Origin: an uncultured bacterium
GTDB lineage: Bacteria; Hydrogenedentota; Hydrogenedentia; Hydrogenedentales; CAILVY01
Reading direction: 5' to 3'
Length of the DNA stretch: 64,000 nt
NCBI GenBank assembly: GCA_937951485.1
Contig: CALEDJ010000015.1
Location: 45,311-109,310 of the forward strand
Below are positions 1 through 36,695 of this stretch, one piece after another. Both the position numbers and the translations under genes were made by a program. How positions within the stretch are numbered: position 1 is the first letter of the stretch; every line of letters begins with the position of its first letter. Below the pieces are notes generated by a model. It ran no database searches. It saw only the letters and a list, made by a program, of their open reading frames with translations, and was not told the DNA's origin.

Positions 1-2
1 GC

Positions 3-152
3 ACAGGAATGGGGTTGACCATCGTCAAGCGGATCGTCGAGGAGCACGGGGGCGCCATCGCCGTTGAGTCGGAACCGGGAAAGGGAACCGCGGTCCGTAT
101 TGCGCTGCCGGTCAGACACGGCGCGAAGCAGACAATATCCGAAGGGAAGTAG
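3..152 (+). CDS. Sensor histidine kinase, C-terminal fragment (HATPase_c G2 box region); the 5' end lies outside the window
   Basis: Frame 3 translates to TGMGLTIVKRIVEEHGGAIAVESEPGKGTAVRIALPVRHGAKQTISEGK then a TAG stop at 150-152. The motif pattern GLGLxIVKRIVExHGGxIxVES..G.GT.F...LP is the conserved end of histidine-kinase ATPase domains. Confidence 0.6.
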   Translation, partial: TGMGLTIVKRIVEEHGGAIAVESEPGKGTAVRIALPVRHGAKQTISEGK

Positions 153-195
153 CGGTCATTCCTGTACAGCAATGGGCAGAGGGGACGGGAACAGG

Positions 196-972
196 TCATG
201 CATTCTTTTCGACCTCCCGCATGATGGCGTCAAGAATGGCGCATATCTCCCGGCGTTGCGGTTCTTTGCCCGTGTATGGGGAACATCCTTCGAGGTCTGC
301 CCGGGCAATCTCCGGATCGAAGCAGATTGTGCCCAGAAGCGGCATTCCCTGCAACAGTCCGGTGAGACCGTTCAGGTCCATGCCGGGGGTAACCTTGTTA
401 ATTACGACGCCGAGGCGTGGAATGTGGATTTCCTCGGCGAGTTTGCGGATGGTGAGGGCGGTCTGGATACTTCTCAGGCCGGGTTCGGCCACGATAATCA
501 TCATGGACACCGCTTCGGCGGTGGCCCGCCCAAGGTGCTCCACGCCGGCTTCCATATCCAGGATGACCGCCTCTTGGGGCCGTAACAGTACATGAGTAAC
601 CAGGGCTTTGAGCAGCGCGCTTTCCGGGCAAATGCAGCCGCTTCCGCCCGTAGACACGCCGCCCAGCGTCAACAATTGCACACCGTGAATGATGCGCGCG
701 TACTTTTCCGGCAGATCGCGCACGTCCGGGTTAATCTTGAAATACGTGCCGTAGCCGCTTTTGGAGCCTGTCCGTTCGCGGATCAGGTCCTTCATCTGGC
801 TCAGGGGCGCCGGCATCTCCTCAGGAGGCACTCCCAACGCCGAGGCAAGATTTGCGTCTGGATCTGCGTCAATAGCGATCACCGGGCGTCCCTGGTCCGC
901 CAAGGTCCTGGCCAGCAATGCCGCCAATGTGGTTTTCCCTGTCCCCCCTTTTCCCGTGATTGCAATCTTCAT
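196..972 (-). CDS. cooC: CooC/AcsF-type Ni-insertion ATPase (CO dehydrogenase / acetyl-CoA synthase maturation factor)
   Basis: MKIAITGKGGTGKTT deviant Walker A and a CICP (CxC) metal-binding motif, about 258 aa. The start at 972 is preceded by GGAG. Divergent from acsB. Confidence 0.85.
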   Translation of the reverse strand: MKIAITGKGGTGKTTLAALLARTLADQGRPVIAIDADPDANLASALGVPPEEMPAPLSQMKDLIRERTGSKSGYGTYFKINPDVRDLPEKYARIIHGVQLLTLGGVSTGGSGCICPESALLKALVTHVLLRPQEAVILDMEAGVEHLGRATAEAVSMMIIVAEPGLRSIQTALTIRKLAEEIHIPRLGVVINKVTPGMDLNGLTGLLQGMPLLGTICFDPEIARADLEGCSPYTGKEPQRREICAILDAIMREVEKNA

Positions 973-1497
973 ATTCCCATCTCCTCTGTGGGTCTGCATT
1001 TCGCCATATATTGCGTCGGATTTTTCATCTCCCTTTTGTTGCAACATCATTGGTTCGGCATGTTATTCCGATGCGCCATTGTCACGCAACAGGATGTGCA
1101 GCATGCTCTCGTGGGTTGCGGAATTTCGCAAACTCTTGGGGATTGCCGTAACTCTAACCGAGGTATTGCATCTTCCCGCTTCCCGCAACCCCGGGCACCT
1201 GAGATTCCCCAGCATGGAGAAGATACGTTCTATCAGCGTCGGCATTGACCCTTCGACGATTGGAACGATTTTTTCGGCAGCCCGCCAGCAAAACGCGCCA
1301 TAGGCACAGGACTTGCTTGAATCCAAGGGAGCGGCAGAAACGTGTTTTATCTGCCTGTATTGTAGTTTTCCGGCCAGGTCAGACAGTGGCTGCAGGCATG
1401 CTTGTGGCTTGTCGAAGAAGGGCGGCATGAGGCAGAAACAACCGGCATTCGCGTCCACAGGACGAAGCGATCGCATTCAACGGGAGATTTGGGTTCT

Positions 1498-3678
1498 ATG
1501 AGTCGAAAAGTGATTGCAGCGGCGATTCGGGGTGCGCAGTCCTTTGTTGCCAGAGCGGAAAGCGAGGTGCGCACCGCCCTGGAGACCCGAGGGTCGGAAC
1601 AGCGTGTGGGTTTTCCCGGAACGGCCTTTTATCTTCCCATGGCGTATGCGCTCATGGGCATAGAAGCGCAGACAGTGGGTGACCTGCAGCTGATTGCGCG
1701 GCATTGCCGGGAACTGGTTGGCGAAGAACCTCCGGCTCGGCTATGGCTGCCCTACCTGGGGCGGGGGCTGGACAGCGGCGTTGCCACCCTGCTTGCCCAA
1801 GAAGTTATCTGCGCCTTGCGTTACCTCAGAAACGAACCCATCGAGCAGGACCATACCGGTTTCATTTCCGACACAATTCTGCGGGAGTTGGGCATTCAGT
1901 TGGTGGATGGCCGCATGCCTGGTTTTGCGGCGATTTTGGGGCCCGCCCCCACCAACGACATTGCCGTCAAAGCCGTCAGACAGTTGCAGCAGCGCAACAT
2001 CCTGTCGTTTCTCCTGTGCAACCGGGATGGCCGTTCCCTGTACGACCAACTCGTCGAGGAAGGCGTCGAGATGGGATGGAATACTTACATTGTTCCGGTG
2101 GGCCGGGATACGGAATCCGCCATTTATGTGCTGGATTGGGCGATTCGCGGCGCCCTGACGTTCGGGGGGCACAAGAAGGGGGATTTCAGGGCCTGTCTGC
2201 GCTATTGCCGCGAGCGCATCTTCGCGTTCGGCATCACCTTCGGCCCGATTCCCGACGAATGGTATGCCGTTGGCGCGGGGGCCATCGTCATGGGGTTTCC
2301 CGTGATTTCGGATGATGCCACAACGCCGGAGATTCGCCCCACGGGGGTAACCACGTACGAGGAACTGGTCCGGGAAACGGACCATGAGAAGTTAATTGCG
2401 CGCGCCATCGAAGTGCGAGGGGTGAAGGTGAAGGTGGAGACCATGGACATTCCCGTGGCGTATGCGGCGGCCTTCGAGGGCGAACGCGTGCGCCGCGAAG
2501 ACATGCACACCCAGTTCGGCGGCAAATACTCGAAGGCGGTGGAATTCCTGCGCATGCGCGATGCCAAAGACATCGAGGACGGGCGGGTGACCGTCATCGG
2601 TCCCGACCTGGACGCGACAGACGCCAGGACTTCGTTGGACCTGGGGATTCTGATCGAGGTGGCTGGGCGCAAAATGCGCCCGGACTTCGAGGGCATTCTG
2701 GAACGCCAGATGCATCGCTACCTGAACCATGCCATGGGCGTCATGCACATTGCCCAGCGCGATCAACTCTGGCTGCGCATCAGCAAGGATGCATTCAAAG
2801 CGGGTTTCCGGCTGAAGCATCTCGGGAATATTCTCCACGCCAAACTACTGGGGGAATATGGCGGGATAGTGGACCGCGTCCAAGTGACCATCTATACGGA
2901 GTCGGAGGCGGTGGAAAAACTGCTTGCAGAGGCTACCGCCGCCTTTGACGCCCGTGATGACCGGGTGCGGGGCATGATGGACGAATCGGTGGACACCTTC
3001 TATTCCTGCACGATCTGTCAATCCTACGCCCCCAATCACGTTTGCGTCATCACGCCGGAACGGTTGGGCCTGTGCGGCGCATATAACTGGCTTGACGGGC
3101 AGGCTGCCTACGAGATCAATCCTGTCGGCCCCAATCAACCCATCAAGAAAGGACGCGTTGTCAATGAGTCCTTGGGCGAATGGCAGGGTGTGAACGAATT
3201 TGTGTATGCGCACTCGAATCATGCGACGGAACGCTTCTCCGCGTATTCGCTCATGCAGAACCCGATGACATCGTGCGGATGCTTCGAAGTGATTGTCGCC
3301 ATCGTTCCAGAGTGCAATGGAGTGATTGCCGTAAACCGCGAATACCAGGGGGACACCCCCATCGGCATGCAGTTCAGCACCTTGGCCGGGTCGGTCGGCG
3401 GGGGGGCGCAGACGCCCGGCTTCGTGGGAGTGGGCCGCATGTACCTGGCGTCACGGAAATTCATCGCCGCGGAGGGCGGCCTCAAGCGCCTGGTCTGGAT
3501 GCCCAAGGACCTCAAGGAAGCCATGCGCGCATATCTGGCCGACCGCGCGCAGGAAATGGGACTGAACGGGTTCGTGGACAAGATCGCGGACGAAACCATC
3601 ACCACCGAAAGCGATGGGCTGTTGGCGCATCTTGAACGGGTGGAACACCCCGCGTTAACGATGGAACCGCTTATTTGA
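1498..3678 (+). CDS. acsB: Acetyl-CoA synthase catalytic subunit AcsB (CODH/ACS alpha, A-cluster subunit)
   Basis: C-terminal domain carries CTICQSYAPNHVCVITPE and the Cys-Gly-Cys A-cluster motif (TSCGCFE), about 726 aa. A GGGAGA RBS precedes the ATG at 1498. The upstream extension in the ORF track is non-coding. Confidence 0.9.
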   Translation: MSRKVIAAAIRGAQSFVARAESEVRTALETRGSEQRVGFPGTAFYLPMAYALMGIEAQTVGDLQLIARHCRELVGEEPPARLWLPYLGRGLDSGVATLLAQEVICALRYLRNEPIEQDHTGFISDTILRELGIQLVDGRMPGFAAILGPAPTNDIAVKAVRQLQQRNILSFLLCNRDGRSLYDQLVEEGVEMGWNTYIVPVGRDTESAIYVLDWAIRGALTFGGHKKGDFRACLRYCRERIFAFGITFGPIPDEWYAVGAGAIVMGFPVISDDATTPEIRPTGVTTYEELVRETDHEKLIARAIEVRGVKVKVETMDIPVAYAAAFEGERVRREDMHTQFGGKYSKAVEFLRMRDAKDIEDGRVTVIGPDLDATDARTSLDLGILIEVAGRKMRPDFEGILERQMHRYLNHAMGVMHIAQRDQLWLRISKDAFKAGFRLKHLGNILHAKLLGEYGGIVDRVQVTIYTESEAVEKLLAEATAAFDARDDRVRGMMDESVDTFYSCTICQSYAPNHVCVITPERLGLCGAYNWLDGQAAYEINPVGPNQPIKKGRVVNESLGEWQGVNEFVYAHSNHATERFSAYSLMQNPMTSCGCFEVIVAIVPECNGVIAVNREYQGDTPIGMQFSTLAGSVGGGAQTPGFVGVGRMYLASRKFIAAEGGLKRLVWMPKDLKEAMRAYLADRAQEMGLNGFVDKIADETITTESDGLLAHLERVEHPALTMEPLI

Positions 3679-3723
3679 TCATCATGCGCCGGCAATGGCC
3701 GGCTGATAAGGAGTACATGCGTT

Positions 3724-5067
3724 ATGGCACTCTCAGGACTTGAGATATACAAGAGCCTGCCGAAGGAAAACTGCAAAGAATGCGGCTTGCCGACTTGCCT
3801 TGCCTTTGCCATGAAGGTTGCTGCGGGGCAAGCCCCGCTCGAGAATTGTCCGCGCCTGGAACCGGGCGCGGCCGCGGCGCTCAGCGAGGCCAGTGCGCCG
3901 CCGCAACAACTGGTGAAGGTCGGTGTGGGCGACCAGGCATTTGAAATCGGCCGGGAAACAGTCCTGTACCGGCATGAGGACAAATTCCACCATCCCGCCG
4001 CGATTGGCGTTTGCGTGGATGATACGGCCGAGATTGCTGCAATCAAGGAGAAAAGCCGCGCAGTGGCGGCCATCGCCTTCGACAGGATGGGCAAAGTGTC
4101 CAAAATAGACCTGATAGCGGTCCGTCATTTGTCGGGTGATGTCGAGCGATTCGCGTTGGCGGCAAAAGCCGCGGCGGATGCGGCCGGAAGGCCGGTTGCG
4201 CTGATGGCGTCCGACCCCAACGCTTTGCGCGCGGCCGGCGGCGCATTGGCGGCCCAACGTCCGCTCTTGTGGGCCATGAACGCCCAGGCCGACATTGACG
4301 GATACATCGCCACAGCCAAGGAACTGGGTCTTCCCTTGTGCATTCAAGGCAGAGATTTTGAAGAAATATCCGCCTTGTCCGAAAAGGCTCGGGCGGCAGG
4401 TCTGAAAGAACTCATCCTCGCGCCCGAGTGCGCCACGGAAACAGACGGGCTTGCTTTCCTGACCCAAAGCCGCCGGGCGGCTATATCCAGGAAGTATCGC
4501 CCCTTGGGATATCCGGTGGCCATGACGGCGATCAACGGAAATCCTGTTCAGGCGACGGTGGCCGCCTGCTGGTACATATTGAAGTATGCCGGGATTGTGG
4601 TGACCAATGTATCCGACCCAGCCTACCTTCTGGCCATGGCGGCGTCGCGCCAGGATATCTACACCGACCCGCAGGTGCCGGTGCAGGTGAAGCCGGGAGT
4701 GCATCCCGTTGGCGACCCCGGCCCCGACGCGCCCGTGCTGGTGACCACCAATTTCGCACTGTCCTACTATTCCGTTGAATCGGAAATCACCGCCGCACGG
4801 ATACCGGCCCACATCATCGCCGTGGACACGGAAGGCACCAGCGTACTCACGGCGTGGGCTGCGGAAAAACTTACGCCGGCGTCGGTGGCGCAGACGCTGT
4901 CGGCCAGCAATCTGGACCGGCAGGTCAACCACAAGAAGATGATCATTCCCGGGCTGGTGGCCGTGCTCAGCGGCGGTATCAAGGAAGAATCCGGATGGGA
5001 TGTCATGGTGGGACCCCGCGAGGCATCCGGCATCGTGCCCTATCTCAAGAAACAATGGAGCGGATGA
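3724..5067 (+). CDS. acsC: Corrinoid iron-sulfur protein large subunit AcsC
   Basis: N-terminal LEIYKSLPKENCKECGLPTCLAFAMK [4Fe-4S] motif, TIM-barrel and C-terminal B12-binding regions, 447 aa. AAGGAG RBS. Confidence 0.85.
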   Translation: MALSGLEIYKSLPKENCKECGLPTCLAFAMKVAAGQAPLENCPRLEPGAAAALSEASAPPQQLVKVGVGDQAFEIGRETVLYRHEDKFHHPAAIGVCVDDTAEIAAIKEKSRAVAAIAFDRMGKVSKIDLIAVRHLSGDVERFALAAKAAADAAGRPVALMASDPNALRAAGGALAAQRPLLWAMNAQADIDGYIATAKELGLPLCIQGRDFEEISALSEKARAAGLKELILAPECATETDGLAFLTQSRRAAISRKYRPLGYPVAMTAINGNPVQATVAACWYILKYAGIVVTNVSDPAYLLAMAASRQDIYTDPQVPVQVKPGVHPVGDPGPDAPVLVTTNFALSYYSVESEITAARIPAHIIAVDTEGTSVLTAWAAEKLTPASVAQTLSASNLDRQVNHKKMIIPGLVAVLSGGIKEESGWDVMVGPREASGIVPYLKKQWSG

Positions 5068-5070
5068 ACC

Positions 5071-7002
5071 ATGGGCCCTTCACGCGCGAAGAAATCTTGT
5101 ACTATCCACTTTTTGCCCGGTGATGTTTCCGTGGAGGTGCCGGTTGGCACAACCATCCTGGACGCGGCGCGCGCCGCGGGCGTATTTGTCGAGAATCTCT
5201 GCGGAGGCGACGGGGTGTGCGGCAAATGCCGCGTTATTGTGCGCCGCGGTCTTGTCGGCGGTGCCGCCACAGGTTCGCTTACGCGCGAACAAATCCGGGA
5301 GGGGTACATCCTGGCCTGTGAAGCGCGGGCCGAGGGAAATGTCATCATCGAGGTGCCCACTGAATCCCAGTTGCGCGGAAAAGTCCGCAGCGCGGACGGT
5401 TCCGAACTGGGGATTCGCGAGCGGGATTACCTGGCCAGGACGCCGGAACGGCTGCACCCCCTGGTCCGGAAATACGCTCTGAAACCCGCCCCCCCGACCC
5501 TTGAGAACTGCCTGTCGGACCTGTCGCGGCTGAAGCAGAAACTTCAAGAGGTGGATGACGCCGCGGAATATCAGATGGGGCTGAAGATAATCCGCATGCT
5601 GCCGCACGTCCTTCGCGGACATGACGGCGTCGTTACGGCCACGGTGGCCCACCGCGGCGCATTGGCGGAAATCACGGACATTGTCGCCGGCGACAGCAGC
5701 GTGCCCAATCTTGCCGTGGCCGTGGATGTGGGCACGACCTCGATTGTTGCGCAACTCGTCGAGTTGGCCAGCGGCCAGACGCTGGGCACTTCGGCCAAGT
5801 ACAACTCGCAGGCGGTCTATGGTTCGGACATATTGCGGCGCATCATCTGGGCGACAGAGCACCCCAACGGCCTCGAGCAAATGCACAGCATGGTGGTGGA
5901 CGACATCAACATCCTTATCCAGGAACTCCTGGACGCAAGCCGGCTGAGCCAGAACTACATTACGTTTCTGGTTGCCGCGGGCAACACGACCATTATGCAC
6001 ACCTTGCTCGGCGTGACCCCGCAGTGGATACGACGTGAGCCATATGTCGGTGTGACCTATCACCCCCCGGCCTTGCGCGCCGCAGAACTGGGAATCACCA
6101 TCAATCCACGCGGGCTGGTCTATTGCATGCCCTGCGTGAGCGCCTTTGTGGGCGCGGATATCACGGCCGGGGTGCTGGCGGTGGGCATGCATCAGGCGGC
6201 GCGCCCCAAGATGCTGATAGACATCGGTACGAACGGCGAGATTGTCATCGGCAACCGCGACTGGATGGTGTGTGCGAGCGCATCCGCGGGGCCTGCCTTC
6301 GAGGGCGCAGGAACGCACGACGGCATGCGCGCCACCACCGGCGCCATAGATCATATCCGAGGATGGAGTGCGGGCCAGAACCTTACCTTTTCCACCATCG
6401 GGGGGGAGCCGCCGCGCGGCTTGTGCGGGACGGCTTTTGTTGATTTGCTTGCCCACCTGCTGCGTCTTGGTATCATGGACAAGACGGGAAAACTGGTCCG
6501 AAACCATCCCAGTTCCAGGGTTCGCGAGAACGGCGACGGCATGTTGGAATTTCTGGTGGTCGGCGCGGGCGAGCGCGGCGCGCCGCGCGATCTGGTCATT
6601 ACCCAAGACGATATCGAGAATCTGGTGCGCACCAAAGCGGCTGTTTACGCCGCGTCACAGGTGCTGCTGCGCGCACTGGGGCTGCAGATGGCAGATATTG
6701 AGGAGATCTATGTTGCGGGCGCTTTCGGCAATTACCTGGACTTGGAAAATGCGGTGCGCATCGGATTGCTGCCCGATGTCCCGGCGCAGAAGATGCGGTT
6801 TGCGGGCAACACCAGCCTGTTGGGTGCAAGAATGGCCGCCCTGAACAGACAGAACTATTTGGACGTGCAGAAGATCGCCAATTCGATGACGTATTTTGAA
6901 CTCAGCACGGAGCCGTCTTTCATGGAGTCTTTTCAATCCGCCTGCTTCTTCCCGCACACCAATATCGAGGAATTTCCTTCGGTCATGGCATTGGTGTCGT
7001 GA
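5071..7002 (+). CDS. acsV: Corrinoid activation/regeneration protein (RACo-type reductive activator of CoFeSP): 2Fe-2S ferredoxin domain plus ASKHA ATPase
   Basis: N-terminal plant-type ferredoxin cysteines (CGGDGVCGKC) followed by an ASKHA fold (DVGTTSIVAQL...GTNGEIVIG), 643 aa. Position between acsC and acsE is typical. Confidence 0.8.
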   Translation: MGPSRAKKSCTIHFLPGDVSVEVPVGTTILDAARAAGVFVENLCGGDGVCGKCRVIVRRGLVGGAATGSLTREQIREGYILACEARAEGNVIIEVPTESQLRGKVRSADGSELGIRERDYLARTPERLHPLVRKYALKPAPPTLENCLSDLSRLKQKLQEVDDAAEYQMGLKIIRMLPHVLRGHDGVVTATVAHRGALAEITDIVAGDSSVPNLAVAVDVGTTSIVAQLVELASGQTLGTSAKYNSQAVYGSDILRRIIWATEHPNGLEQMHSMVVDDINILIQELLDASRLSQNYITFLVAAGNTTIMHTLLGVTPQWIRREPYVGVTYHPPALRAAELGITINPRGLVYCMPCVSAFVGADITAGVLAVGMHQAARPKMLIDIGTNGEIVIGNRDWMVCASASAGPAFEGAGTHDGMRATTGAIDHIRGWSAGQNLTFSTIGGEPPRGLCGTAFVDLLAHLLRLGIMDKTGKLVRNHPSSRVRENGDGMLEFLVVGAGERGAPRDLVITQDDIENLVRTKAAVYAASQVLLRALGLQMADIEEIYVAGAFGNYLDLENAVRIGLLPDVPAQKMRFAGNTSLLGARMAALNRQNYLDVQKIANSMTYFELSTEPSFMESFQSACFFPHTNIEEFPSVMALVS

Positions 7003-7099
7003 ACGTGGCCGGCGCCTGGCGCGCCTGGCCGCTCGAGCGCGGCGGCGGTAAGGCTGCGGGGCGGTGAGCAAAATCAACCGTGGCGAGTGGAGATATCTT

Positions 7100-7930
7100 A
7101 TGTACATTATCGGCGAACGGATCAACGGGATGTTCAAGCGCGTACGCGCGGCCATCGAAGAGCAGAACAAGAGCGTTATCCAGGAGTTGGTGCGCGCGCA
7201 ACTGGAGGGCGCGGCCAATGCCCTGGACGTCAATGTAGGTCCGGCCCAGGTTGATCCGCTTGAGGCGATGCATTGGCTGATAGATACCATCAGGGAGGTG
7301 AGTGATGTCACCCTCTGTATTGACAATCCGAAATATGAGATTCAAAAGGAGGTCATTCCACGCTTGGGGCCGCGCGCCATCATCAACTCCTCGAAAGCCG
7401 ATGAGGAGGCGCTGGAGAAGTTCGTGGCGCTGGCCGCCGAGAACGACGCCAGGCTGATCGCCCTGACCATTGACAAGAAAGGAGTCCCCGCGGACGTGGA
7501 GCGGCGCGTCGAACTCGGCGCATTTATTGTCGTGAAGGCCATGGAAGGGGGGCTGCCGATGGACCATCTCTACATTGATCCCATCATTCTGCCGGTCAAT
7601 GTCGCCCCGAAGCAGCCCCAGTTTGTCCTGGAGGCGTTGCGGCAACTGAGGATACTGAGCGACACGCCGCCCCATCTCAACCTCGGCCTCTCGAATCTTT
7701 CCCAGGGATGTGCGAACCGCCCGCTGATTAACCGCTCCTATCTGGTAATGGCCGTCCTGGCCGGGTTGGATGCGGCCATAATGGATCCCCTGGACAAAGA
7801 CCTTGTGGACGCCATGATTACGGCCGAATTGCTTACGGAAAAGATGATCTATTGTGATTCATATCTCGAAGCCTACCGCATGACCAACTGCGTCGGCGTC
7901 CAGGACCGCATGGGTTGCATGAGGAGATGA
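7100..7930 (+). CDS. acsE: Methyltetrahydrofolate:corrinoid/iron-sulfur protein methyltransferase AcsE (pterin-binding domain)
   Basis: MYIIGERINGMF N-terminus typical of MeTr/AcsE and a pterin-binding TIM barrel. GGAG RBS before the ATG at 7100. Confidence 0.85.
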   Translation: MYIIGERINGMFKRVRAAIEEQNKSVIQELVRAQLEGAANALDVNVGPAQVDPLEAMHWLIDTIREVSDVTLCIDNPKYEIQKEVIPRLGPRAIINSSKADEEALEKFVALAAENDARLIALTIDKKGVPADVERRVELGAFIVVKAMEGGLPMDHLYIDPIILPVNVAPKQPQFVLEALRQLRILSDTPPHLNLGLSNLSQGCANRPLINRSYLVMAVLAGLDAAIMDPLDKDLVDAMITAELLTEKMIYCDSYLEAYRMTNCVGVQDRMGCMRR

Positions 7931-7932
7931 CC

Positions 7933-8265
7933 ATGGCAGACATGCATTGTCCGGGGCGCACCAGCGCGGTCGCCTATCTTTCAAGCGCCATGGTGCAATG
8001 CCCCGCGTGCGGCATGGAAGTGGAGATTTTCGGCGATGAAATCCGAATACGCTGTCGCTGCGGCGGCGTGGTGTTCCGCGAGGCGCTGCCCGCATGCGCC
8101 CAGTGGTGCAGGGAATCCGAGCGATGCTTCGGCCAGGCGGGCAGTTTCCCGAAGTTCCTGAAAAACGCCGGCGACTCGGAAGAAATGAAAAGGCAGGAGG
8201 CGCGTTTCCGGGAAATCCAGGCCCGCGTCATTGCCAGCCTCAGCAAGTGTTCCCAGGCAAAATAG
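7933..8265 (+). CDS. Small cysteine-rich protein (9 Cys: CPG, CPAC, CRC, CxxWCx5C), putative zinc-ribbon/metal-binding protein
   Basis: The ORF follows the acsE stop directly; a GAGGAG RBS at 7921-7926 sits 6 nt before the ATG at 7933. No family recognised. Confidence 0.45.
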   Translation: MADMHCPGRTSAVAYLSSAMVQCPACGMEVEIFGDEIRIRCRCGGVVFREALPACAQWCRESERCFGQAGSFPKFLKNAGDSEEMKRQEARFREIQARVIASLSKCSQAK

Positions 8266-8306
8266 CCGTTGCCGGGGGGCGCCGCGCATGATTTGGGAGA
8301 CTGGAG

Positions 8307-8945
8307 ATGCCCATTCCCGTCAAACAGGAAAACTACCGGATTGCCGTCAGCCAAGGCTTCGAGCAGGCCGGCGCACGGCCGGCCCCGGCCCTGGAGGCCC
8401 TGGGCGCAGAGATATGCGGCGACGGCCGATTCAGGCTGCCCGTGTTGAACAGCGTGTTCACCGTTGATCTTCCCGGCCGGGACATCTCTTTTTCCACGCC
8501 GACGCCCGAGGGGACATCCAGCGGCAGCGTGGGTGTCATGTGGCAGATTCTGGCGTTGCACTATCTCTGCGGCGATATTCCCCGGAACGATGGTTTCCGG
8601 TGGGTTTCATTTGCGGATTTCCAGGAGATTCGGGGATATCAGAGCGTGTACCAGGGGCGCGTGATCTCCCGGTTCTGCGCCACCGCCGGGCGGTCTATCG
8701 AGCAGTTCCAGCAGGCCGGGGAACGACACGGCGGCGCGCCGCTGCGGTTGGGGGATGCGGCGTATCATTTCCAAGTTTTTCCGAGATCGCCGCTCCGGGT
8801 GGTCTGGTACGCGGGCGACGGCGAATTGCCGGCGGGCGCCACCATCTTGTATCCGGACAACATTCTGACGATACTACCCTTGGAAGATGTAATCGTGCTG
8901 TCTGAAGGCCTGGTGAGCCGGCTTCAGGGAAAAGGATGGCTCTGA
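8307..8945 (+). CDS. Hypothetical protein, possibly DUF3786-type (a family that recurs in acs clusters)
   Basis: 212-aa ORF with a GGAGACTGGAG RBS, co-oriented between acsE and folD. The family assignment is from memory of the domain pattern only. Confidence 0.4.
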   Translation: MPIPVKQENYRIAVSQGFEQAGARPAPALEALGAEICGDGRFRLPVLNSVFTVDLPGRDISFSTPTPEGTSSGSVGVMWQILALHYLCGDIPRNDGFRWVSFADFQEIRGYQSVYQGRVISRFCATAGRSIEQFQQAGERHGGAPLRLGDAAYHFQVFPRSPLRVVWYAGDGELPAGATILYPDNILTILPLEDVIVLSEGLVSRLQGKGWL

Positions 8946-9026
8946 GCAAGATTGTGCAGCGGCGGTCAGGCACGAGAAGGGCGTTTCCCAACCAGCCAGG
9001 ACAGCAACAAAGGAGACGGGGCTTTT

Positions 9027-9938
9027 ATGAGCAAGAAGCGTTCGGCGAAAATCATTGACGGGAAAAAGATATCCGCAGCCATACTGCAGGACCTGAAAGA
9101 GGACATCGCGGCGTTGCGCGCGCGGGGCGTTGCGCCTGGGTTGGCGGTGGTGCTGGTGGGCGCCAACCCCGCCAGCGAGGTGTATGTGAAGGCCAAGCGC
9201 AGAACCTGCATTGACCTGGGCATCGAGTCGTTCTCGCATGACCTGCCCGAAAGTTGCACGGAAAAGCGTCTGCTGAAACTGATTGAGAAATTGAACGAAG
9301 ACCCGCGCGTTCACGGCATCCTGGTGCAGATGCCGCTGCCCGAACACATCAGCGAGAAGAAAGTGCTCGAAGCGATTTCCCCCGACAAGGACGTGGATGG
9401 CTTTCACCCCGTGAATGTGGGGCGTCTGCTCAATGGCGAGGAATGCTTCGTCTCCTGCACGCCGGCGGGCTGCCAGGCCCTGCTGCTGCGGTCAGGATAC
9501 GATCCGGCGGGAAAACATGTGGTGATCGTGGGACGATCGAATATCGTGGGCAAACCCCTGGCCGCGCTGCTGATGCAGAAGGCGAACGGGGCCAACGCCA
9601 CCGTGACGGTCTGCCATTCGCACACGCGCAATATCAGCAAAATCACCCGCGAGGCGGACATCCTGATTGCGGCCATGGGCCGGCCCGAGTTCGTCAAGCC
9701 AAACATGGTACGGGAAGGGGCTATCGTACTTGACGTGGGGGTCAACCGCATCCCCGATGCAACCAAGAAAAGCGGCACGCGGCTGGTCGGCGATGTCGCC
9801 TTTGCCGGCGTGTCCAGGAAGGCGCGGGCCATCACCCCCGTGCCCGGCGGCGTCGGGCCGATGACCATCGCCATGTTGATGACCAATACGGTCAAGGCGG
9901 CGCGCCGCGCCGCCGACCGCAAGCGAGGGCGGGCGTAG
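9027..9938 (+). CDS. folD: Bifunctional 5,10-methylene-tetrahydrofolate dehydrogenase / methenyl-THF cyclohydrolase FolD
   Basis: Start MSKKRSAKIIDGKKISAAILQDLKEDIAALRARGVAPGLAVVLVGANPASEVYVKAK..; internal motifs HGILVQMPLP and GVGPMTIAML. An AAAGGAG RBS precedes the ATG at 9027. Confidence 0.9.
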   Translation: MSKKRSAKIIDGKKISAAILQDLKEDIAALRARGVAPGLAVVLVGANPASEVYVKAKRRTCIDLGIESFSHDLPESCTEKRLLKLIEKLNEDPRVHGILVQMPLPEHISEKKVLEAISPDKDVDGFHPVNVGRLLNGEECFVSCTPAGCQALLLRSGYDPAGKHVVIVGRSNIVGKPLAALLMQKANGANATVTVCHSHTRNISKITREADILIAAMGRPEFVKPNMVREGAIVLDVGVNRIPDATKKSGTRLVGDVAFAGVSRKARAITPVPGGVGPMTIAMLMTNTVKAARRAADRKRGRA

Positions 9939-10206
9939 TCTGCCATTTTGCTTGTTTTCGCGCTTTCGCGCAACCCGGGATTGCGTGTGCAGCATCATGC
10001 CCCTGCATCGTGCTTCAGCGGCAAGGCATGCGGGCGACTGATCTTGGCAATCCGGCATGTAATCGGCCATTTTGTGGCTAATTTGACAAAGTTATTTGTC
10101 ATATTGACAATTGACGATTGAGAGGCTGATCGATTTCCGGGGGGCAGGCGTGGGGGCGATCTCATATTTTTTGAAAACAGGCTTTATTTATTGACTGATT
10201 GGGGTC

Positions 10207-10235
10207 TTGACATTTGTTTCTTGATCTGCTATTAT
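10207..10235 (+). promoter_or_regulatory. sigma70-type promoter of groESL (TTGACA-N17-TATTAT)
   Basis: Perfect -35 TTGACA at 10207-10212 and -10 TATTAT at 10230-10235 with a 17-nt spacer, about 130 nt upstream of groES. Confidence 0.5.
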
Positions 10236-10367
10236 CCATTGCATCTATCGAGTGCTAACAGGCCGATGGACAAAAAAAGTTCTGTCAAAATGGCGCGGAA
10301 ATGCCGCAGTGATGCTTCCGCGCACGCAGCATACAAGCCAACAACAACCAAAAAAGGAGAGGAAGCG

Positions 10368-12331
<1,964 letters not shown>

Positions 12332-13756: not shown

Positions 13757-15073
13757 TCAAGGAAGGACTTTCACGTTCTTTTCGCCGTCCCCGAACCACG
13801 GCACGGTGTATGACGCCGAGGGCATGCAGTAGCAGGTCGGATCGGCGACGCCCGTCTCCCGGAGTTCTGCGCGCGCCAGCGCGAGCGCGGCGTCCAGCGA
13901 TGCCGCTTTGCGCGCGCCGATCAGGGCGACGTCTTTGTCGCTCAGATCGGTGACCAGTATGGTTTTTGGGGCTTTCTCGATGGTGGAAAGGGCGGTCTGG
14001 CCGTTTATCTCGGCATGCTTGCGCAATTCGGCGAAAATGGCATCGCGGGTCTTGAGGGCCAGCCATTGGCCGAACCTGTCAGCGCCAAGCCCCTCCGGTG
14101 CGGGGGCAAGCAGGACGATCCGTCCTTGGGGAGTTGCGGCCAGGGAGGCGTTGAACAGTGCCTTGTGCGACTGGAGGAAATTCGCCGCATCGCCCGCCGA
14201 CGCGATCACGAGGTCGGCGCGGCGGCGGATGGGTGCGGCGTAACACTCCCAGGCGAAGCGCGCGGCGGCGCGGTGCGCGGCGTCCATTTCCCCCGCGAAA
14301 ATCCCGGCGATTTCGCCGCGGCGGTTCAAGACGGTGTTGATGATGCCATCGGCCTTGCACAGTTGCGCCGCTTCGAGCATGTCTTCCGCCACGGGGTTGC
14401 CGTCGAGCACGCCGATGCGCACTGCGGGATTAAGGCGGTTCTCGGCGGAGTCCAGATTGAGCGCATGGTTGTGCGCGATGGTGGCTGCGCCCGCCAGGCC
14501 GGGCAGCAACGCCTTGCGGCCGCCGCCGAACCCTGCAAAATAGTGCAGCACGACGCTCCCTGTCAGGATCACCCGGTCGCAGTCATAGACCCGCTGATTG
14601 ATCCAGACCGGCGTGCCGCGCCGGGTCTCGCCCACGTATATCAGGCCCGCCTCATCCTGCGGGTCATGCACGAGGCACTGCGACTGGAAGCGCGCAAAAA
14701 GGTCGGCGCCCGCGATGCGCGCCTGTTCCCCTTGCGTCGGAGGCCGATGCGTTCCGGTCGCGAAAGCAAACAGGATATCTTCCTCGGCGATGCCCGCCTG
14801 GGACAAGTCGTCGAGAACGAACGGCAGCAATTGGTCCATGCCGGTATGCCGGAAAGCGTCGGAGAGGACGATCGCCACGGTTTCACCGGGTCGAAAGGAT
14901 TTCCATATGCCCGACGAAAGGCCGATGGGCTGATCGACGGCGCGGCGATAGGCCGTCTGCAGGTCGTTCAGTCCCGGAACATCGGCAATGTCCAATGTTC
15001 CCAGGGACTGTCCCCAGTCCATCTCTGCTTCCATCACGGAATTGCCGTAGGGCATGACAACGCGGATAGCCAT
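13757..15073 (-). CDS. LarA-family protein (nickel-pincer-nucleotide-dependent lactate racemase-like; DUF2088)
   Basis: N-terminus MAIRVVMPYGNS...DQPIGL resembles the LarA N-terminal domain, and there is a HYFAGFGGGRK motif. No larBCE genes nearby. Confidence 0.65.
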   Translation of the reverse strand: MAIRVVMPYGNSVMEAEMDWGQSLGTLDIADVPGLNDLQTAYRRAVDQPIGLSSGIWKSFRPGETVAIVLSDAFRHTGMDQLLPFVLDDLSQAGIAEEDILFAFATGTHRPPTQGEQARIAGADLFARFQSQCLVHDPQDEAGLIYVGETRRGTPVWINQRVYDCDRVILTGSVVLHYFAGFGGGRKALLPGLAGAATIAHNHALNLDSAENRLNPAVRIGVLDGNPVAEDMLEAAQLCKADGIINTVLNRRGEIAGIFAGEMDAAHRAAARFAWECYAAPIRRRADLVIASAGDAANFLQSHKALFNASLAATPQGRIVLLAPAPEGLGADRFGQWLALKTRDAIFAELRKHAEINGQTALSTIEKAPKTILVTDLSDKDVALIGARKAASLDAALALARAELRETGVADPTCYCMPSASYTVPWFGDGEKNVKVLP

Positions 15074-15296
15074 CTTTGTACCACCATTGAGACATTTGCG
15101 AAATGACGTTTCGGACCTCAATGCCATCAAAAATCCCGGATATTCGTGTTCTTAAGCGCAGAAAGAGTCCATTTCGCAAATGCGTCACCATTCAATCACA
15201 TGGTCCGTGCAAGGGGCGTATTGTCTCCGTCGGTGCGGCTCGAATCAAGTGAAAAACGCCCGGCGGAAATCTGGAGCACGCGTGTGACATCCGCCG

Positions 15297-31885: not shown

Positions 31886-33022
31886 ATGCGCATCCTGATT
31901 CCCACAATGGACTATCCGCCCGCGGCGGGCGGCATCGCCAGCGTAACGCTGGAACTTTCGCGGGAACTGGCCGCCATGGGTCATGTGGTGACCATTGTGG
32001 CGCCCCCAGCCCCTGACATGGCCGCGTTTGATCGGGGGGAACCGGCGCACGTCATCCGATTCGCGGGACGCCGGCGCGGGTGCTTCTGCTTCCTTCCTTT
32101 GTGCTGGAAGACCTGGCGGCTCGCGGGGCGGGCGGACCTGATTCTCGCCATCAACGCGACATATGGCGGGATCATCGCGCGCGGCGGGCGCCTCTTGTTC
32201 GGCCCGCCGTACCTTGTGTTCGCCCATGCCGATGAATGCCTCCGGTACAGGCGCGCGCCAGTCGTGCGGACGTTGCTGCGGTCGGTGTATCGCCGCGCGA
32301 ACACCGTCGTCGCCCTCAGTCGGCATGCGCGGCGCAACCTGGAATTGGTCGGCGTGCCTGAACGCGACATTGCGCTGGTCCTGCCCGGCGCACGGCTGCC
32401 GGAACCGCTCCCGGCAGCGGCGATCCATGCTGTCCGGGAGCGGTTCGATATCTGCGACAGCAACATGATCCTCGCCGTTGGCCGTTTCCTCCCCCACAAG
32501 GGCCATCTCACGCTGGTCAAGGCGATGCCGCAGGTGCTGGAGCGTCATCCGAACACGCATCTTGTCATGGCGGGCCAAGGACCCTGCCTGGGAGCGTGTC
32601 TGGACAAGGCGCGGGCGCTGGGCATTGAAGGGCAGGTGCATTGTACCGGCCATGTGGATGACGCGACGCTGGAAGCCCTCTACCAGGCGTGTGATGTATT
32701 TGCCCTGCCCATTGAGGATGCGCAGGAACAGGGGTTGGAACTGGTATTCACCGAAGCCCACGCCCGGGGAAAACCTGTCGTGGCGGGGCGGGTCGCCGGT
32801 GTTCCAGACCTCGTCATTGACGGACAAACCGGGTTCCTCGTGGAACCACAGAACCCGGACGCGCTGGCGGACCACATTGCCGCGATCCTCGATGACCCTC
32901 AACTGGCAAAGCGCCTGGGCGAGGCGGGTCGCCGCCGCATCGAAGAAGAACTCAACTGGCGGGCGTTTGCGGAAAAAGTGATCGCGGCCGCATCGCGGAA
33001 AGGCGGGGCTATCGCGCCGTGA
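31886..33022 (+). CDS. GT4-family (GT-B fold) glycosyltransferase
   Basis: N-terminal [21 protein letters not shown] and the C-terminal [30 protein letters not shown] motif, equivalent to the E-X7-E motif of GT4 enzymes. Confidence 0.8.
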
Positions 33023-36000
33023 TCATTCCCGAGTAGGCCTCCTTGGGGCCGCAATCGAAGAGGTAGTTGTCCTCCCTGCCGAACCAGCCGGTGGCGGCGC
33101 GGTAATTGTCCCCCCCGTAAACATTCGTTTTCGGTCCCCAGCCCCATTTCTCGCTGGTGATATGGCCGTCGCACCAGAGCACATTGGCGCGGCCGTTGTG
33201 GCGGAAATGGATGGTGGGGGTGGATAGACCCCATTCAGTGTTTCCTTGCGGGTGGTCGGGCGTGACGAAATACGGCGGCTCGATGAAACTGTACTCGATG
33301 ACGTAGCCGTCCTGCGCCAGCGCGGCATCGGCAAACATCATGGTCTCGGAGGGTTTTCGGACGTGGCTGTCCAGCGTGGTGCGTCGTGCCGATTCCGGCA
33401 GTTCAAATAGATAGGCGGTGCCGCCGATATAGGCCATGTTGTAGCCGTAACCGCCGCCGCCCGACTCAAAAGCGTTGGGCGCTTCGCCCACGCGCTTCAT
33501 TTCGGTGAAGGCGGGGCACTCCTTGACCCGGCCGTCCGGCAGGTACTCGGCGAGCGGGCCGCTGTTGGGGTCGAAGGGGCTGTTGCCGTTGGCCTCCTTG
33601 CGCACGCCGTGCCAGCGGATACGCCCGCCGAAACCGTCGAGGATATCCGGCGCGGCGGGAACGTAAAGCCCCTTGTTTTCCCCGGCGTACATGGTGTTGG
33701 CCAGGAACAACTGGCGCAGGTTGTTGAGGCATTGCACGCGGACGCCCTGCTGCCGTGCGCGCGACAGCGCGGGAAGGAGCAGTGCGGCGAGGATCGCCAC
33801 AATGGCGATCACCACCAGCAGTTCGATGAGGGTGAATCCGCCGGTCGCCTTACTCCGCGTCCGGAGGCCGTCGCGTGCGGCGCGCCGACGGGGGTGCATG
33901 CGTCTCATCCCCGCCGCGCCCAGCAGAAAAACCACCGAGAACAGGCAACGCACGGCGGGAACCGGCACATAATCGGCGATGGACAGGGCCTGTTCACCCA
34001 AGAACACCGTCTTACCGGCGTCGCCGTATGCGGTCAGGTAAAACACATCATCACTGTGCGCGGCCTCGACGGTGATCGAAGCGCGGCCAAAGACGGTGCG
34101 CGCCTGGAATCCTGGAAGCGTATCGTCGGCGTCGCCGGAAACGAAGGTCGCGCCCTCGATGTCGAGCGTGACGAATGATCCGTCGCGCACGATGTTGCCG
34201 TAATAATCGCGGATGACGCTGGACGTCAGCGTCACGGAGACCGGCGCGAAGCCTTCCGGGCGGCTCATGGTCCACGCGACCGGCGATTCCGGCGGGCCGG
34301 GCAGGAAGCGATACGTCAACTCGCCGTATGCGGAACCGGTGACCGACACCGCGGCAAAGACGGCTGTGCCGGATCGCGTTGACTGCGCCGCAAAGACAAT
34401 CCGCCCATCCTGGGCGGCAACCTGGACGCCCGGCGCGCCGGGGTCCGCGTCCGGCGTTGCAATGTGTCCCAGTGTCGTGTGCACGGTAAACAGCGCGCCG
34501 TCGGTCACGGGCATGGCCGCGTGATCAAGAATAATGTCGCTCTCGACAACGACCGACGGGAACACATCCACCGGGGCTTCCTCCGGCGGGGTGGCGTGCA
34601 GGAGGATGTCGCCCTGCGGGCCAAAGGGATTCCCCGTGTCGCCTGCCCCGGCAGTGGACGCCAGAATGAAAAGCCCGGGCGCGTCGGACCGGAACGTAAC
34701 CAAATTGGCGGTGTCGTTCACGCTGATTTGCGTAATGCCCTGCAGGGTCCAGCCGCTTCCCGTGTGCCGCCACGGTTGCAGTCCCGCTTCGTCCAGCCCC
34801 GCGATTTCCGCCGACGTGTATCGGATGGTGATTTCCATGGGCTGAATCTGCGCCGCGCTGAAACTCGATTCGCTGCAAAGAATCCCCCGGACGGTCCCGC
34901 TCTTGATGAGGTCGGGGTTGGGCAACGGTGTGACAGGCGCCACGGGCGCGACGATGTCCAGCGTGGCATTGCGCGGCAAGCCGGGGTCCCTGTCGCCGCT
35001 CGAATAGAAGCGCAGGCGCGTGCCACGATCATCCTCGACCGTGCCCAGCAGCGTTCCTGCCGGGCTGCCGCCGAATTCCGCCGGAATCGCGAGCGCGACG
35101 ACCGTGCTCTCGCGCCGGAGCGGGTCCGTGCCCGCGACGCGGATTTCGTAATCATCCAGAATGCCGTCGCCGTCGGTGTCCACATCGCGCGCGATCGCCG
35201 CGACCGCGTTGATTTCCGGCGATACCGTACCCAAGGCGCCCGATTCTTTGTGAATGAATGACGTGAACCGGATACAGGAAAACTGCGTCAGGTTGGCGGG
35301 ATTGCCGGCGGCGTCCACCGCCCAGGCGATATCGAAGGCATCGCCGCCGCCCGAGCGCGGCGTCAGCCCCACGGTAAACGGATCGTCCGGGCGCATGTAA
35401 TTATCGAGGTATTCCGGCAGCGCGGGCGACATGTCGCCGTAGCCCCAATTGAATTCCTCGTGATCGTTCGCGGGGTTGGCGTCGAAGAGGTTGGGGTTGG
35501 TGACGACGCCGGAGAGAATATACGGATCGTCCGTGCTGTTGCCTTGGCCGGCCGGTTCGGTGAGCCACGGGAAGGGATCATAGGCGAAATTGCGGCTGCC
35601 GGGAATCAGATACCACGGGCCATCGGGGTGATTGCTGATTTCGATAAGTGCCGGTTCCTGCCATTTCCGCCGGGGATTGCCGCCGACCCAGAAGGCGTTC
35701 CCATAGACGATGAAATCCAGGCCCATCGGATTGTCGGGGTGGTCCAGCACCGGCGTATTGAATTTCAGGGTCAGCGTGCCGCCCTGACCGCCGAGCGACA
35801 CCACCGACGCATTGTCCGGCGCGATGACGCCCCCACCGCTGGGCTTGCCCAGCGCCTTTGCCGGATCGGAGAACGGCCCCGTGGGCGGGTTCGGCCCCTG
35901 CTGAAAATGGACCACCTCGTCCGCCCAGGGATCGTCCGCATGGGAGACGCCGGCGGCAATGGCCAGCAGCACAAGGCACGCCGCAAGCGGCCCGAATGCG

Positions 36001-36047
36001 GCGTTTGCCAGGAAGCCCGAAAAGGGGGTTCCGGGCGAATCAATCAC
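33009..36047 (-). CDS. Long composite ORF with no stop between two modules. The N-terminal roughly 700 aa is a secreted protein with a signal peptide and a PEP-CTERM-like tail (VPVP, TM segment, RRMHPRRR). The C-terminal 299 aa is a prepilin-type N-terminal cleavage/methylation H-X9-DG (DUF1559) pilin-like protein
   Basis: Signal peptide [23 protein letters not shown] from a probable GTG start near 36047. An Asp-rich calcium-binding-like loop ([12 protein letters not shown]). The tail is ..[45 protein letters not shown], then [25 protein letters not shown] (class III signal), then [16 protein letters not shown] (H-X9-DG). An internal ATG at 33908 or 33899 would start the pilin-like module as a separate gene. 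Confidence 0.5.
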
Positions 36048-36695
36048 GAAAATCTCATTCGAGACTTTCGTGATTGGGTCTTTTTCCGGGCGGCGTGCCG
36101 CCCGGGCGTCCAGGCAAGCCTGGACGCATGAAAGCGGTGGCAAGCCGGCGCAGTGCAAAAAAGCGTTACCCCCTCGTGACACCGCTCCCGCGCTGTCACA
36201 TAACAGCGAAGAAAAACACGGAACCTGACACAGGAAAATGCGAATGTTTCTGATCATCGTGCGCATAAACGCCGCCCTCGGGCGTTTTTGGGCGCACCCG
36301 GCAACAGGGAGCAGCGGCGGGAATCATCAGGCGATCATCGCAATGTCAATGATGCATGATCTTTGCCGCCGCCTTCCCACGAAGGCGCGCGCCACCTCGA
36401 GTTACACACTGACGGCACGACACGCGCCGCCCCCATCGGCAGGTCTTCGGACTTGCGGGCACACCGCGCGATCGCGTCTCTCGACGCGCCGCCCGGCACT
36501 CTACTGGACGCCGCTTCCCAGCCTCCGGGGTGGAGGCCAGTGCTTCGTGGCGCCGTTCGTTCCCGCTTACCGCTGCGGGGCAGTTCCGGACTTCCACCGG
36601 ATTCCCTCTTAGCCGGAAACGCCAGGCATGCGTTCCCGGGCCGATAGTGATTTCAGTATAGGCCATCGCGAGTGAAAAAGCAATCGCTGCCGGAT

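Follow-up and report, generated by a model that had tools for sequence, protein, structure and literature searches.

A rearranged Wood-Ljungdahl acs operon in an uncultured member of the Hydrogenedentota

The subject of this analysis is an acs gene cluster that encodes parts of the Wood-Ljungdahl carbonyl branch and is located at positions 196 to 9938 of a 64-kb stretch of DNA (termed the window herein) from an uncultured bacterium of the Hydrogenedentota (GenBank assembly GCA_937951485.1, contig CALEDJ010000015.1). We consider it probable that we are dealing here with the core operon of a canonical bacterial carbonyl branch, the genes of which were not reduced in number but redistributed, with carbon monoxide dehydrogenase (CODH) most likely encoded elsewhere and with a Cys-rich open reading frame (ORF) and a DUF3786 gene forming a conserved accessory pair. 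The finding is a rearranged version of an already known system.

The window was analyzed with an ORF map and with Pfam and NCBI profile searches. A preliminary description of the sequence had listed cooC, acsB, acsC, RACo, acsE, and folD, and all of them were recovered at the positions that it gave. It had also reported that neither CODH nor acsD is encoded within the 10-kb cluster, which Pfam scans and tblastn searches of the whole window bore out, and it had proposed that both may lie elsewhere. For acsD this was right: the gene was found together with a second cooC gene (cooC2) at a second, methyl-branch locus, and the idea of an acs system deficient in acsD gives way to one in which acsD was relocated rather than lost.

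The acs operon, the order in its relatives, and a second locus

The first gene of the presumed operon, acsB (1498 to 3678, + strand), encodes the A-cluster subunit of acetyl-CoA synthase (ACS), which matches NF040764 with 986 bits (cutoff, 800) and has all three bacterial domains (PF18537, PF03598, and PF19436), including the N-terminal CODH-docking domain. Its A-cluster ligands, C-x2-C-x8-C-x9-C and C-G-C, are intact and can be read as SCTICQSYAPNHVCVITPERLGLCG and SCGCFE. It is followed by acsC (3724 to 5067, +; PF04060 and PF03599; NF003195, 495 bits), which encodes the large subunit of the corrinoid iron-sulfur protein (CoFeSP) and in whose translation the N-terminal Fe-S ligands Cys17, Cys20, Cys25, and Cys42 are all kept, and by RACo, or acsV (5071 to 7002, +; domains Fer2, RACo_linker, Raco_middle, and RACo_C_ter; NF040756, 590 bits), for the activator that reduces the corrinoid protein at the expense of ATP, with all of its domains in place. 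An acsE-like gene (7100 to 7930, +; PF00809) for a methyltetrahydrofolate (methyl-THF):CoFeSP methyltransferase comes next; its product is borderline with PRK07535 (258.1 versus a cutoff of 259), scores 161 versus 370 with NF040758, and is an ortholog of AcsE proteins from full clusters (74% to that of locus L002). The ATG of the Cys-rich ORF (7933 to 8265, +; 110 amino acids with 9 Cys) is located 2 nucleotides past the acsE stop codon, and the DUF3786 gene (8307 to 8945, +; 212 amino acids) and folD (9027 to 9938, +; PF00763 and PF02882), which encodes the bifunctional methylene-THF dehydrogenase/cyclohydrolase, complete the series. A terminator-like hairpin overlaps the folD stop codon (9928 to 9944, +) and a strong sigma-70-like promoter precedes groES (10207 to 10235), both according to consensus scans only; given these two features, the genes from acsB to folD most likely constitute one operon. 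Upstream and divergent from acsB is a cooC paralog of the CODH-adjacent type, encoding a P-loop ATPase of Ni insertion (196 to 972, −; PF01656, CbiA; the longest ORF reaches 1050). An Rfam scan of positions 1 to 10700 revealed no riboswitch or other RNA.

To place this arrangement, AcsB was searched for in species-representative genomes, which yielded 80 loci, and the acs genes were mapped there by phmmer. The nearest relatives (69 to 80% AcsB identity), labeled Nitrospiraceae, Hydrogenedentota, Sumerlaeia, Actinomycetota, Planctomycetia, and Phycisphaerae, have a single order wherever the locus is long enough: cooC on the − strand and, divergent from it, CODH, a CooF-like ferredoxin (in some cases plus an FAD oxidoreductase), acsB, acsC, RACo, cooC2, acsD, acsE, the Cys-rich ORF, and DUF3786. 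This order was read contiguously from loci L002 to L011, L089 to L092, and L094. The window AcsB is 80% identical to that of L002 (79 to 80% across L002, L003, and L021), and the window has the relatives' order minus two blocks, CODH-cooF and cooC2-acsD. The same split order recurs in two diverged lineages, L082 (SRR32456895) and L084 (GCA_007130975.1); AcsB identities among the three are 84 to 90%, with the window at 84% to each of the other two. As in the window, L082 has the kinase and nucleotidyltransferase genes described below upstream of the cluster, L084 has folD downstream, and the position of folD is identical in both. When CODH, cooC2, and AcsD of the closest relatives were used as tblastn queries for pseudogene remnants in the window, L082, and L084, only chance-level matches were obtained.

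A second CdhD/AcsD was found neither among the long ORFs of the window by Pfam nor in the known flanks, and the right flank of the window contains neither CODH nor acsD. When AcsD sequences of the relatives were aligned and used to query a database, P0130 (328 amino acids, PF03599) was retrieved, which is 70% identical to the AcsD of L089. The record of P0130 lists a single 124,879-bp contig, with NCBI, Logan, and ENA as sources, and agrees in these values with the records of the window AcsB, AcsC, Cys-rich, and DUF3786 proteins; its Logan contig (L093; 11.2 kb, not overlapping the window) was assembled from the same run as the window, ERR9287890. L093 carries, in order, the 3′ end of a sigma-54-type activator gene, cooC2, acsD, fhs, and genes for an HdrC-like ferredoxin, an HdrB-like CCG protein, a 1,511-amino-acid HdrA/NfnB-like fusion, and MvhD, followed by the start of a metV-like gene. 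From the matching records, we infer that acsD and the neighboring Ni-insertase gene cooC2 have moved to a methyl-branch locus some tens of kilobases away on the same contig. With P0130, located beside cooC2 and fhs, the small subunit of CoFeSP is present, and there are two cooC paralogs, one per locus. The paralog found between RACo and acsD in relatives occupies the place that acsF has in Moorella and Carboxydothermus, and we take it to be AcsF, a name that is used loosely in the literature. Two other proteins, P0047 and P0071, were considered as AcsD of sister lineages and set aside, both being located in ordinary full clusters, and a search of Joint Genome Institute (JGI) metagenomes with the relocated AcsD for longer contigs of the same clade gave a best match of only 62% identity. 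As a general caution, a subunit that seems to be missing from a gene cluster can be a relocated gene, like acsD and the Ni-insertase gene here.

A different arrangement of acsD was observed among the 80 loci. At L031 (10001 to 13501; also L027, L032, L036, L039, and L056; Christensenellaceae, Desulfovibrionaceae, and Acidobacteriaceae), AcsB is about 1,170 to 1,250 amino acids long and there is no separate acsD; the C-terminal extension of the L031 protein is a CdhD domain, which makes it an AcsB-AcsD fusion.

Predicted sigma-54 control of the two loci

The spacer between cooC and acsB contains a sigma-54-type promoter motif, GGCACAGGACTTGCT (1303 to 1317, +), 181 bp before the acsB ATG, and, further upstream, the tandem palindromes TGCGGAATTTCGCA and TGGGGATTGCCGTA (1117 to 1150, +), which are candidate sites for an enhancer-binding protein (upstream activating sequences [UAS]). 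The promoter pattern GGCAC-N5-TTGCT (−24/−12 class) has one match in the window, with 0.18 expected by chance. The same motif is also found upstream of acsB, at the corresponding position, in L082 (3390 to 3404), upstream of cooC2 in L093 (616 to 630), and in the spacer between cooC and CODH of L002, L004, L006, and L008; it was not found in the cooC spacers of L003, L089, L091, and L094. The palindrome pair, TGCGG-N4-YCGCA plus TGGGG-N4-CCGYA, is located about 170 to 190 bp upstream of the motif in the window, in L082 (3201 to 3234), and in L093 (419 to 453).

The flanking genes are also of regulatory types, a histidine kinase beside the acsB locus and the sigma-54 activator beside the cooC2-acsD locus. 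Only the C-terminal end of the kinase (HATPase_c; 3 to 152, +, reading frame 3) is in the window. The independent Logan assembly of run ERR9287890, which reproduces the gene order, extends 1.7 to 2 kb further upstream and adds the full kinase gene (414 amino acids, HisKA and HATPase_c) and an NTP_transf_3 gene; the kinase homologue in L082 is syntenic and 62% identical. The preliminary description had named acsA (the CODH gene) and acsD immediately upstream of the kinase as the outcome that would speak against it; the Logan flank and L082 show otherwise. The shared promoter motif, the paired palindromes, and the kinase and activator flanks suggest that both loci probably belong to one regulon controlled by sigma-54 and an enhancer-binding protein, and that the ancestral promoter would have driven CODH-acsB. 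For an uncultured phylum, the common promoter and palindromes offer a model of how the pathway may be regulated that is open to testing.

On the basis of the family assignments and of known enzymology, the following division of labor can be proposed. AcsB would make or cleave acetyl-CoA, the parts being CO, CoA, and the methyl group on CoFeSP; AcsE would shuttle that methyl group between CoFeSP and methyl-THF in either direction; RACo would re-reduce oxidized cobalt; and FolD would join the pathway to the THF one-carbon pool. AcsD and the AcsF-type Ni-insertase would be supplied from the second locus (cooC2-acsD-fhs-hdrCBA-like-mvhD-metV). In all nearest relatives, the CODH-cooF module stands between this promoter and acsB; here it appears to have been cut out cleanly, and its genes most likely lie elsewhere. 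The Cys-rich protein and the DUF3786 protein might act as a two-part metal-binding accessory with AcsE and CoFeSP, our guess being electron delivery or cofactor handling in methyl transfer.

A probable CODH elsewhere and alternative explanations

We think it likely that a relocated CODH exists elsewhere in the genome, because the CODH-type cooC has been kept under purifying selection, because the docking domain of AcsB is conserved, and because acsD seemed equally missing until it was found. In a neighbor-joining tree, cooC falls into two paralog groups, and the window copy belongs with the type found upstream of CODH and not with the type located between RACo and acsD. The CODH-docking domain of AcsB is 83 to 89% identical within the split-order clade and thus as conserved as in CODH-containing lineages. 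Between the three split-order lineages, the proportion of synonymous sites that differ (pS) is 0.64 to 0.87, at or near saturation, and that of nonsynonymous sites (pN) only 0.05 to 0.28. The ratio of nonsynonymous to synonymous substitution rates (dN/dS) is 0.03 to 0.2 for each gene with estimable dS (two pairs involving the window Cys-rich ORF are too saturated), with 0.10 for cooC versus L082 and 0.08 to 0.11 for acsC within the clade. As judged from these ratios, all acs genes are under strong purifying selection, and no relaxation following the loss of neighbors was seen in acsC or in the docking domain of AcsB.

Several points weigh against the reading of the region as a redistributed but complete system. 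No CODH (Prismane) was found in the sequence covered, about 80 kb made up of the window, the second locus (11 kb), and some 5 kb of additional flanking DNA, and surveys of metagenome-assembled genomes (MAGs) list genomes in Auribacterota and soda-lake PVC (Planctomycetes-Verrucomicrobia-Chlamydiae) groups that are positive for acsB, acsC, and acsD and negative for CooS. The assignment of P0130 to the window's contig comes from the matching contig record and run, not from read-through sequence; promoter and UAS were assigned by motif matching only; and the role of the Cys-rich/DUF3786 pair is read from guilt by association only.

Foremost among the alternatives is that the lineage truly lost CODH and that AcsB and CoFeSP assimilate free CO, or cleave acetyl-CoA, passing the methyl group to the THF pool and releasing CO, which would be reminiscent of Dehalococcoides mccartyi and its incomplete pathway. 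We regard this as unlikely, though well short of far-fetched. It would account for the absence of CODH from the sequence covered and for the fact that, in three diverged lineages, CODH-cooF has cleanly disappeared, without remnants, from between acsB and a promoter that is conserved. It also has parallels: because published MAG tables contain the CooS-negative genomes mentioned above, true CODH loss does occur in other phyla, and D. mccartyi, as summarized in PMC7857596, has ACS without CODH, lacks acsE and metF, and keeps acsC and acsD. Set against this are the cooC that was kept, which is of the type found beside CODH in each of the relatives and is under purifying selection, the docking domain, whose conservation equals that in CODH-containing lineages, and the precedent of acsD, which seemed gone likewise and had only been relocated. 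The full methyl branch (fhs, folD, and hdr-mvhD-metV) together with acsE is also unlike Dehalococcoides. A bolder form of this alternative would have a Hydrogenedentiales lineage discard CODH and retain AcsB, the entire CoFeSP, AcsE, and the whole methyl branch within a single sigma-54 regulon, with free CO consumed or released, the CODH-type CooC reused for ACS maturation, and the Cys-rich/DUF3786 pair serving as a new metal-containing subunit for methyl transfer; we hold this to be slightly less likely still. If CODH were really absent, the lineage would offer a second, differently composed ACS working without CODH.

The other alternatives concern the state of the cluster and of the assembly. 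That these genes are the decaying remains of a disused pathway would agree with the lack of parts of the ancestral cluster at the window locus, and it is very improbable, since all eight genes are intact, synonymous sites are saturated or nearly so in three lineages at the low pN values given above, the catalytic Cys motifs are preserved, and acsD and cooC2 are intact at the other locus. Still harder to credit, even for a metagenome-assembled contig, is an assembly or binning artifact in which a chimeric join dropped CODH and cooC2-acsD, because the junctions are identical in the independent Logan assembly of run ERR9287890, are found again in SRR32456895 and GCA_007130975.1, and have short spacers between intact genes. 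Since it is shared by two diverged lineages that come from other samples, the split order does not reflect chance in a single assembly.

Two further observations on acsB and CODH were made among the 80 loci. Eight of them (L029, L033, L034, L041, L042, L048, L054, and L061; Planctomycetales, Omnitrophota, and "Deltaproteobacteria") carry an acsB of full length, with folD often located some 2 kb upstream of it, and have no CODH, acsC, acsD, acsE, or RACo within ±10 kb; the L029 AcsB has all three domains. At L064 to L081 (Methanomassiliicoccales/Thermoplasmata), the AcsB match is covered by ORFs of about 1,350 amino acids, possibly CODH-AcsB fusions, which are followed by acsD-acsC and, a few kilobases downstream, by acsE-DUF3786.

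The Cys-rich/DUF3786 pair, the surroundings of the operon, and known systems

In the preliminary description, the 212-amino-acid ORF was likened to DUF3786 proteins, and a profile search with its product matched PF12654 at 115.7 bits (cutoff, 27) over profile positions 5 to 175 of 176. The suggestion that the two small ORFs are accessory candidates of the acs system is plausible, as they are kept beside acsE in many phyla and fused in some proteins; the opposite possibility, that they lack conservation in related acs clusters, is contradicted by their adjacency in at least 15 of the loci examined. Representative homologues of the Cys-rich ORF number 412 in an exhaustive profile search, and most are 65 to 130 amino acids long. 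Eight Cys residues are conserved in the family alignment: C6 (in CPG), C23 and C26 (CPxCG), C41 and C43 (CxCG), C55, C59, and C65. The pN of this ORF is 0.19 to 0.22 versus a pS of 0.68 to 0.87. Natural fusions of the Cys-rich domain with DUF3786 are found in P0160 and P0186, and DUF3786 without the Cys-rich ORF is located after acsE at additional loci of bacteria and at five of Thermoplasmata. The adjacency, the fusions, and the linkage to acsE argue that the Cys-rich ORF and DUF3786 are, on this comparative evidence, a conserved functional unit tied to acsE.

The structure model of the DUF3786 protein is confident (predicted local distance difference test [pLDDT] score of 94.4) and consists of two alpha+beta repeats, with no meaningful neighbor in the PDB by sequence or structure comparison. 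The AlphaFold2 model of the Cys-rich protein, made from 6 sequences, is poor (pLDDT of 52), and a PDB sequence search for its family gave no meaningful match. An Fe-S domain of the AcsC/RnfB type (PF04060; C-x2-C-x4-C-x16-C) was considered for this protein and rejected, with no Pfam match and an hhalign probability of 0.5% versus the alignment of AcsC N termini. The Cys pattern fits a putative zinc ribbon plus a second four-Cys site, and the pair could be a metal-binding adaptor for the methyl transfer step of AcsE, CoFeSP, and RACo. In the literature searched, "DUF3786" is mentioned in just one paper, on an unrelated matter. Conserved beside acsE in Bacteria and Thermoplasmata and sometimes fused, the pair is a concrete target in the search for an unrecognized methyl transfer component of the Wood-Ljungdahl pathway.

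The Cys-rich domain was also observed fused to an HD domain (P0221) or to long C-terminal extensions (compare L020, 1 to 429, −, and L022, 5633 to 6439, −), and in L022 it is located beside DUF3786, upstream of cooC-CODH. With these varied fusions and the placement in L022, the domain behaves as a mobile module.

The genome had been called PVC-like. The syntenic locus L084 is from a Hydrogenedentiales MAG, the nearest acs proteins are labeled Hydrogenedentota, Sumerlaeota, or "Nitrospiraceae," and the window, rich in sulfatases and glycosidases, is therefore Hydrogenedentota-like and not PVC. Nor is an acs cluster, which the preliminary description held to be notable in such a genome, new in this phylum: the Wood-Ljungdahl pathway has been described in Hydrogenedentota (PMC6121073) and is known from many unexpected phyla (PMC6146748). 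Elsewhere in the window, 4 kb downstream of the acs operon, there is a gene for a LarA-like protein (13757 to 15130, −) with the lactate racemase N-terminal domain of the Ni-pincer enzyme family. A 688-amino-acid protein with a Schlafen group 3 DNA/RNA helicase domain (41582 to 43648, +; PF09848, 275 bits), which may have a defense role, is encoded next to sulfatase genes. A 1,085-amino-acid ORF (33009 to 36266, −), which matches Pfam solely at residues 809 to 831, with a prepilin-type N-terminal methylation motif, probably represents two merged genes or a start called too early.

Among known systems, D. mccartyi resembles the window lineage in having ACS and CoFeSP genes without an adjacent CODH. 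Its type of incomplete pathway is defined, following PMC7857596, by the lack of acsE and of a methylene-THF reductase, the methyl group going directly from CoFeSP to a core methionine synthase. The window lineage has acsE, folD, fhs, and the metV/hdr/mvhD set, and it departs from this definition in the acsE of the operon and in the metV-like start with hdr/mvhD at the second locus. The DUF3786 product matches its Pfam family (PF12654) end to end; no function has been assigned to this family and no structure of it solved, and the Cys-rich partner, which other organisms have fused to DUF3786, is a separate protein here.

The full clusters of the nearest relatives (L002 and L003, labeled "Nitrospiraceae," L021 from Hydrogenedentota, L089, L091, and L094) have the divergent cooC and, at the loci spanning these parts, the acsE-Cys-DUF3786 tail in common with the window, except L091, which lacks the Cys-rich ORF; unlike the window, they keep CODH-cooF, in some cases with the oxidoreductase, before acsB and cooC2-acsD between RACo and acsE. 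Compared with the canonical acs cluster of the Moorella thermoacetica/Carboxydothermus type (cooC-acsA-acsB-acsC-RACo-acsF-acsD-acsE, an order seen in the C. islandicus locus L067), the window retains the relative order acsB-acsC-RACo...acsE and the intact Cys ligands of the A cluster and CoFeSP. It differs in lacking acsA (with cooF) between the promoter and acsB, in the move of the acsF-type cooC and acsD to the methyl-branch locus, in the addition of the Cys-rich ORF, DUF3786, and folD after acsE, and in its control, which is apparently of the sigma-54 type.

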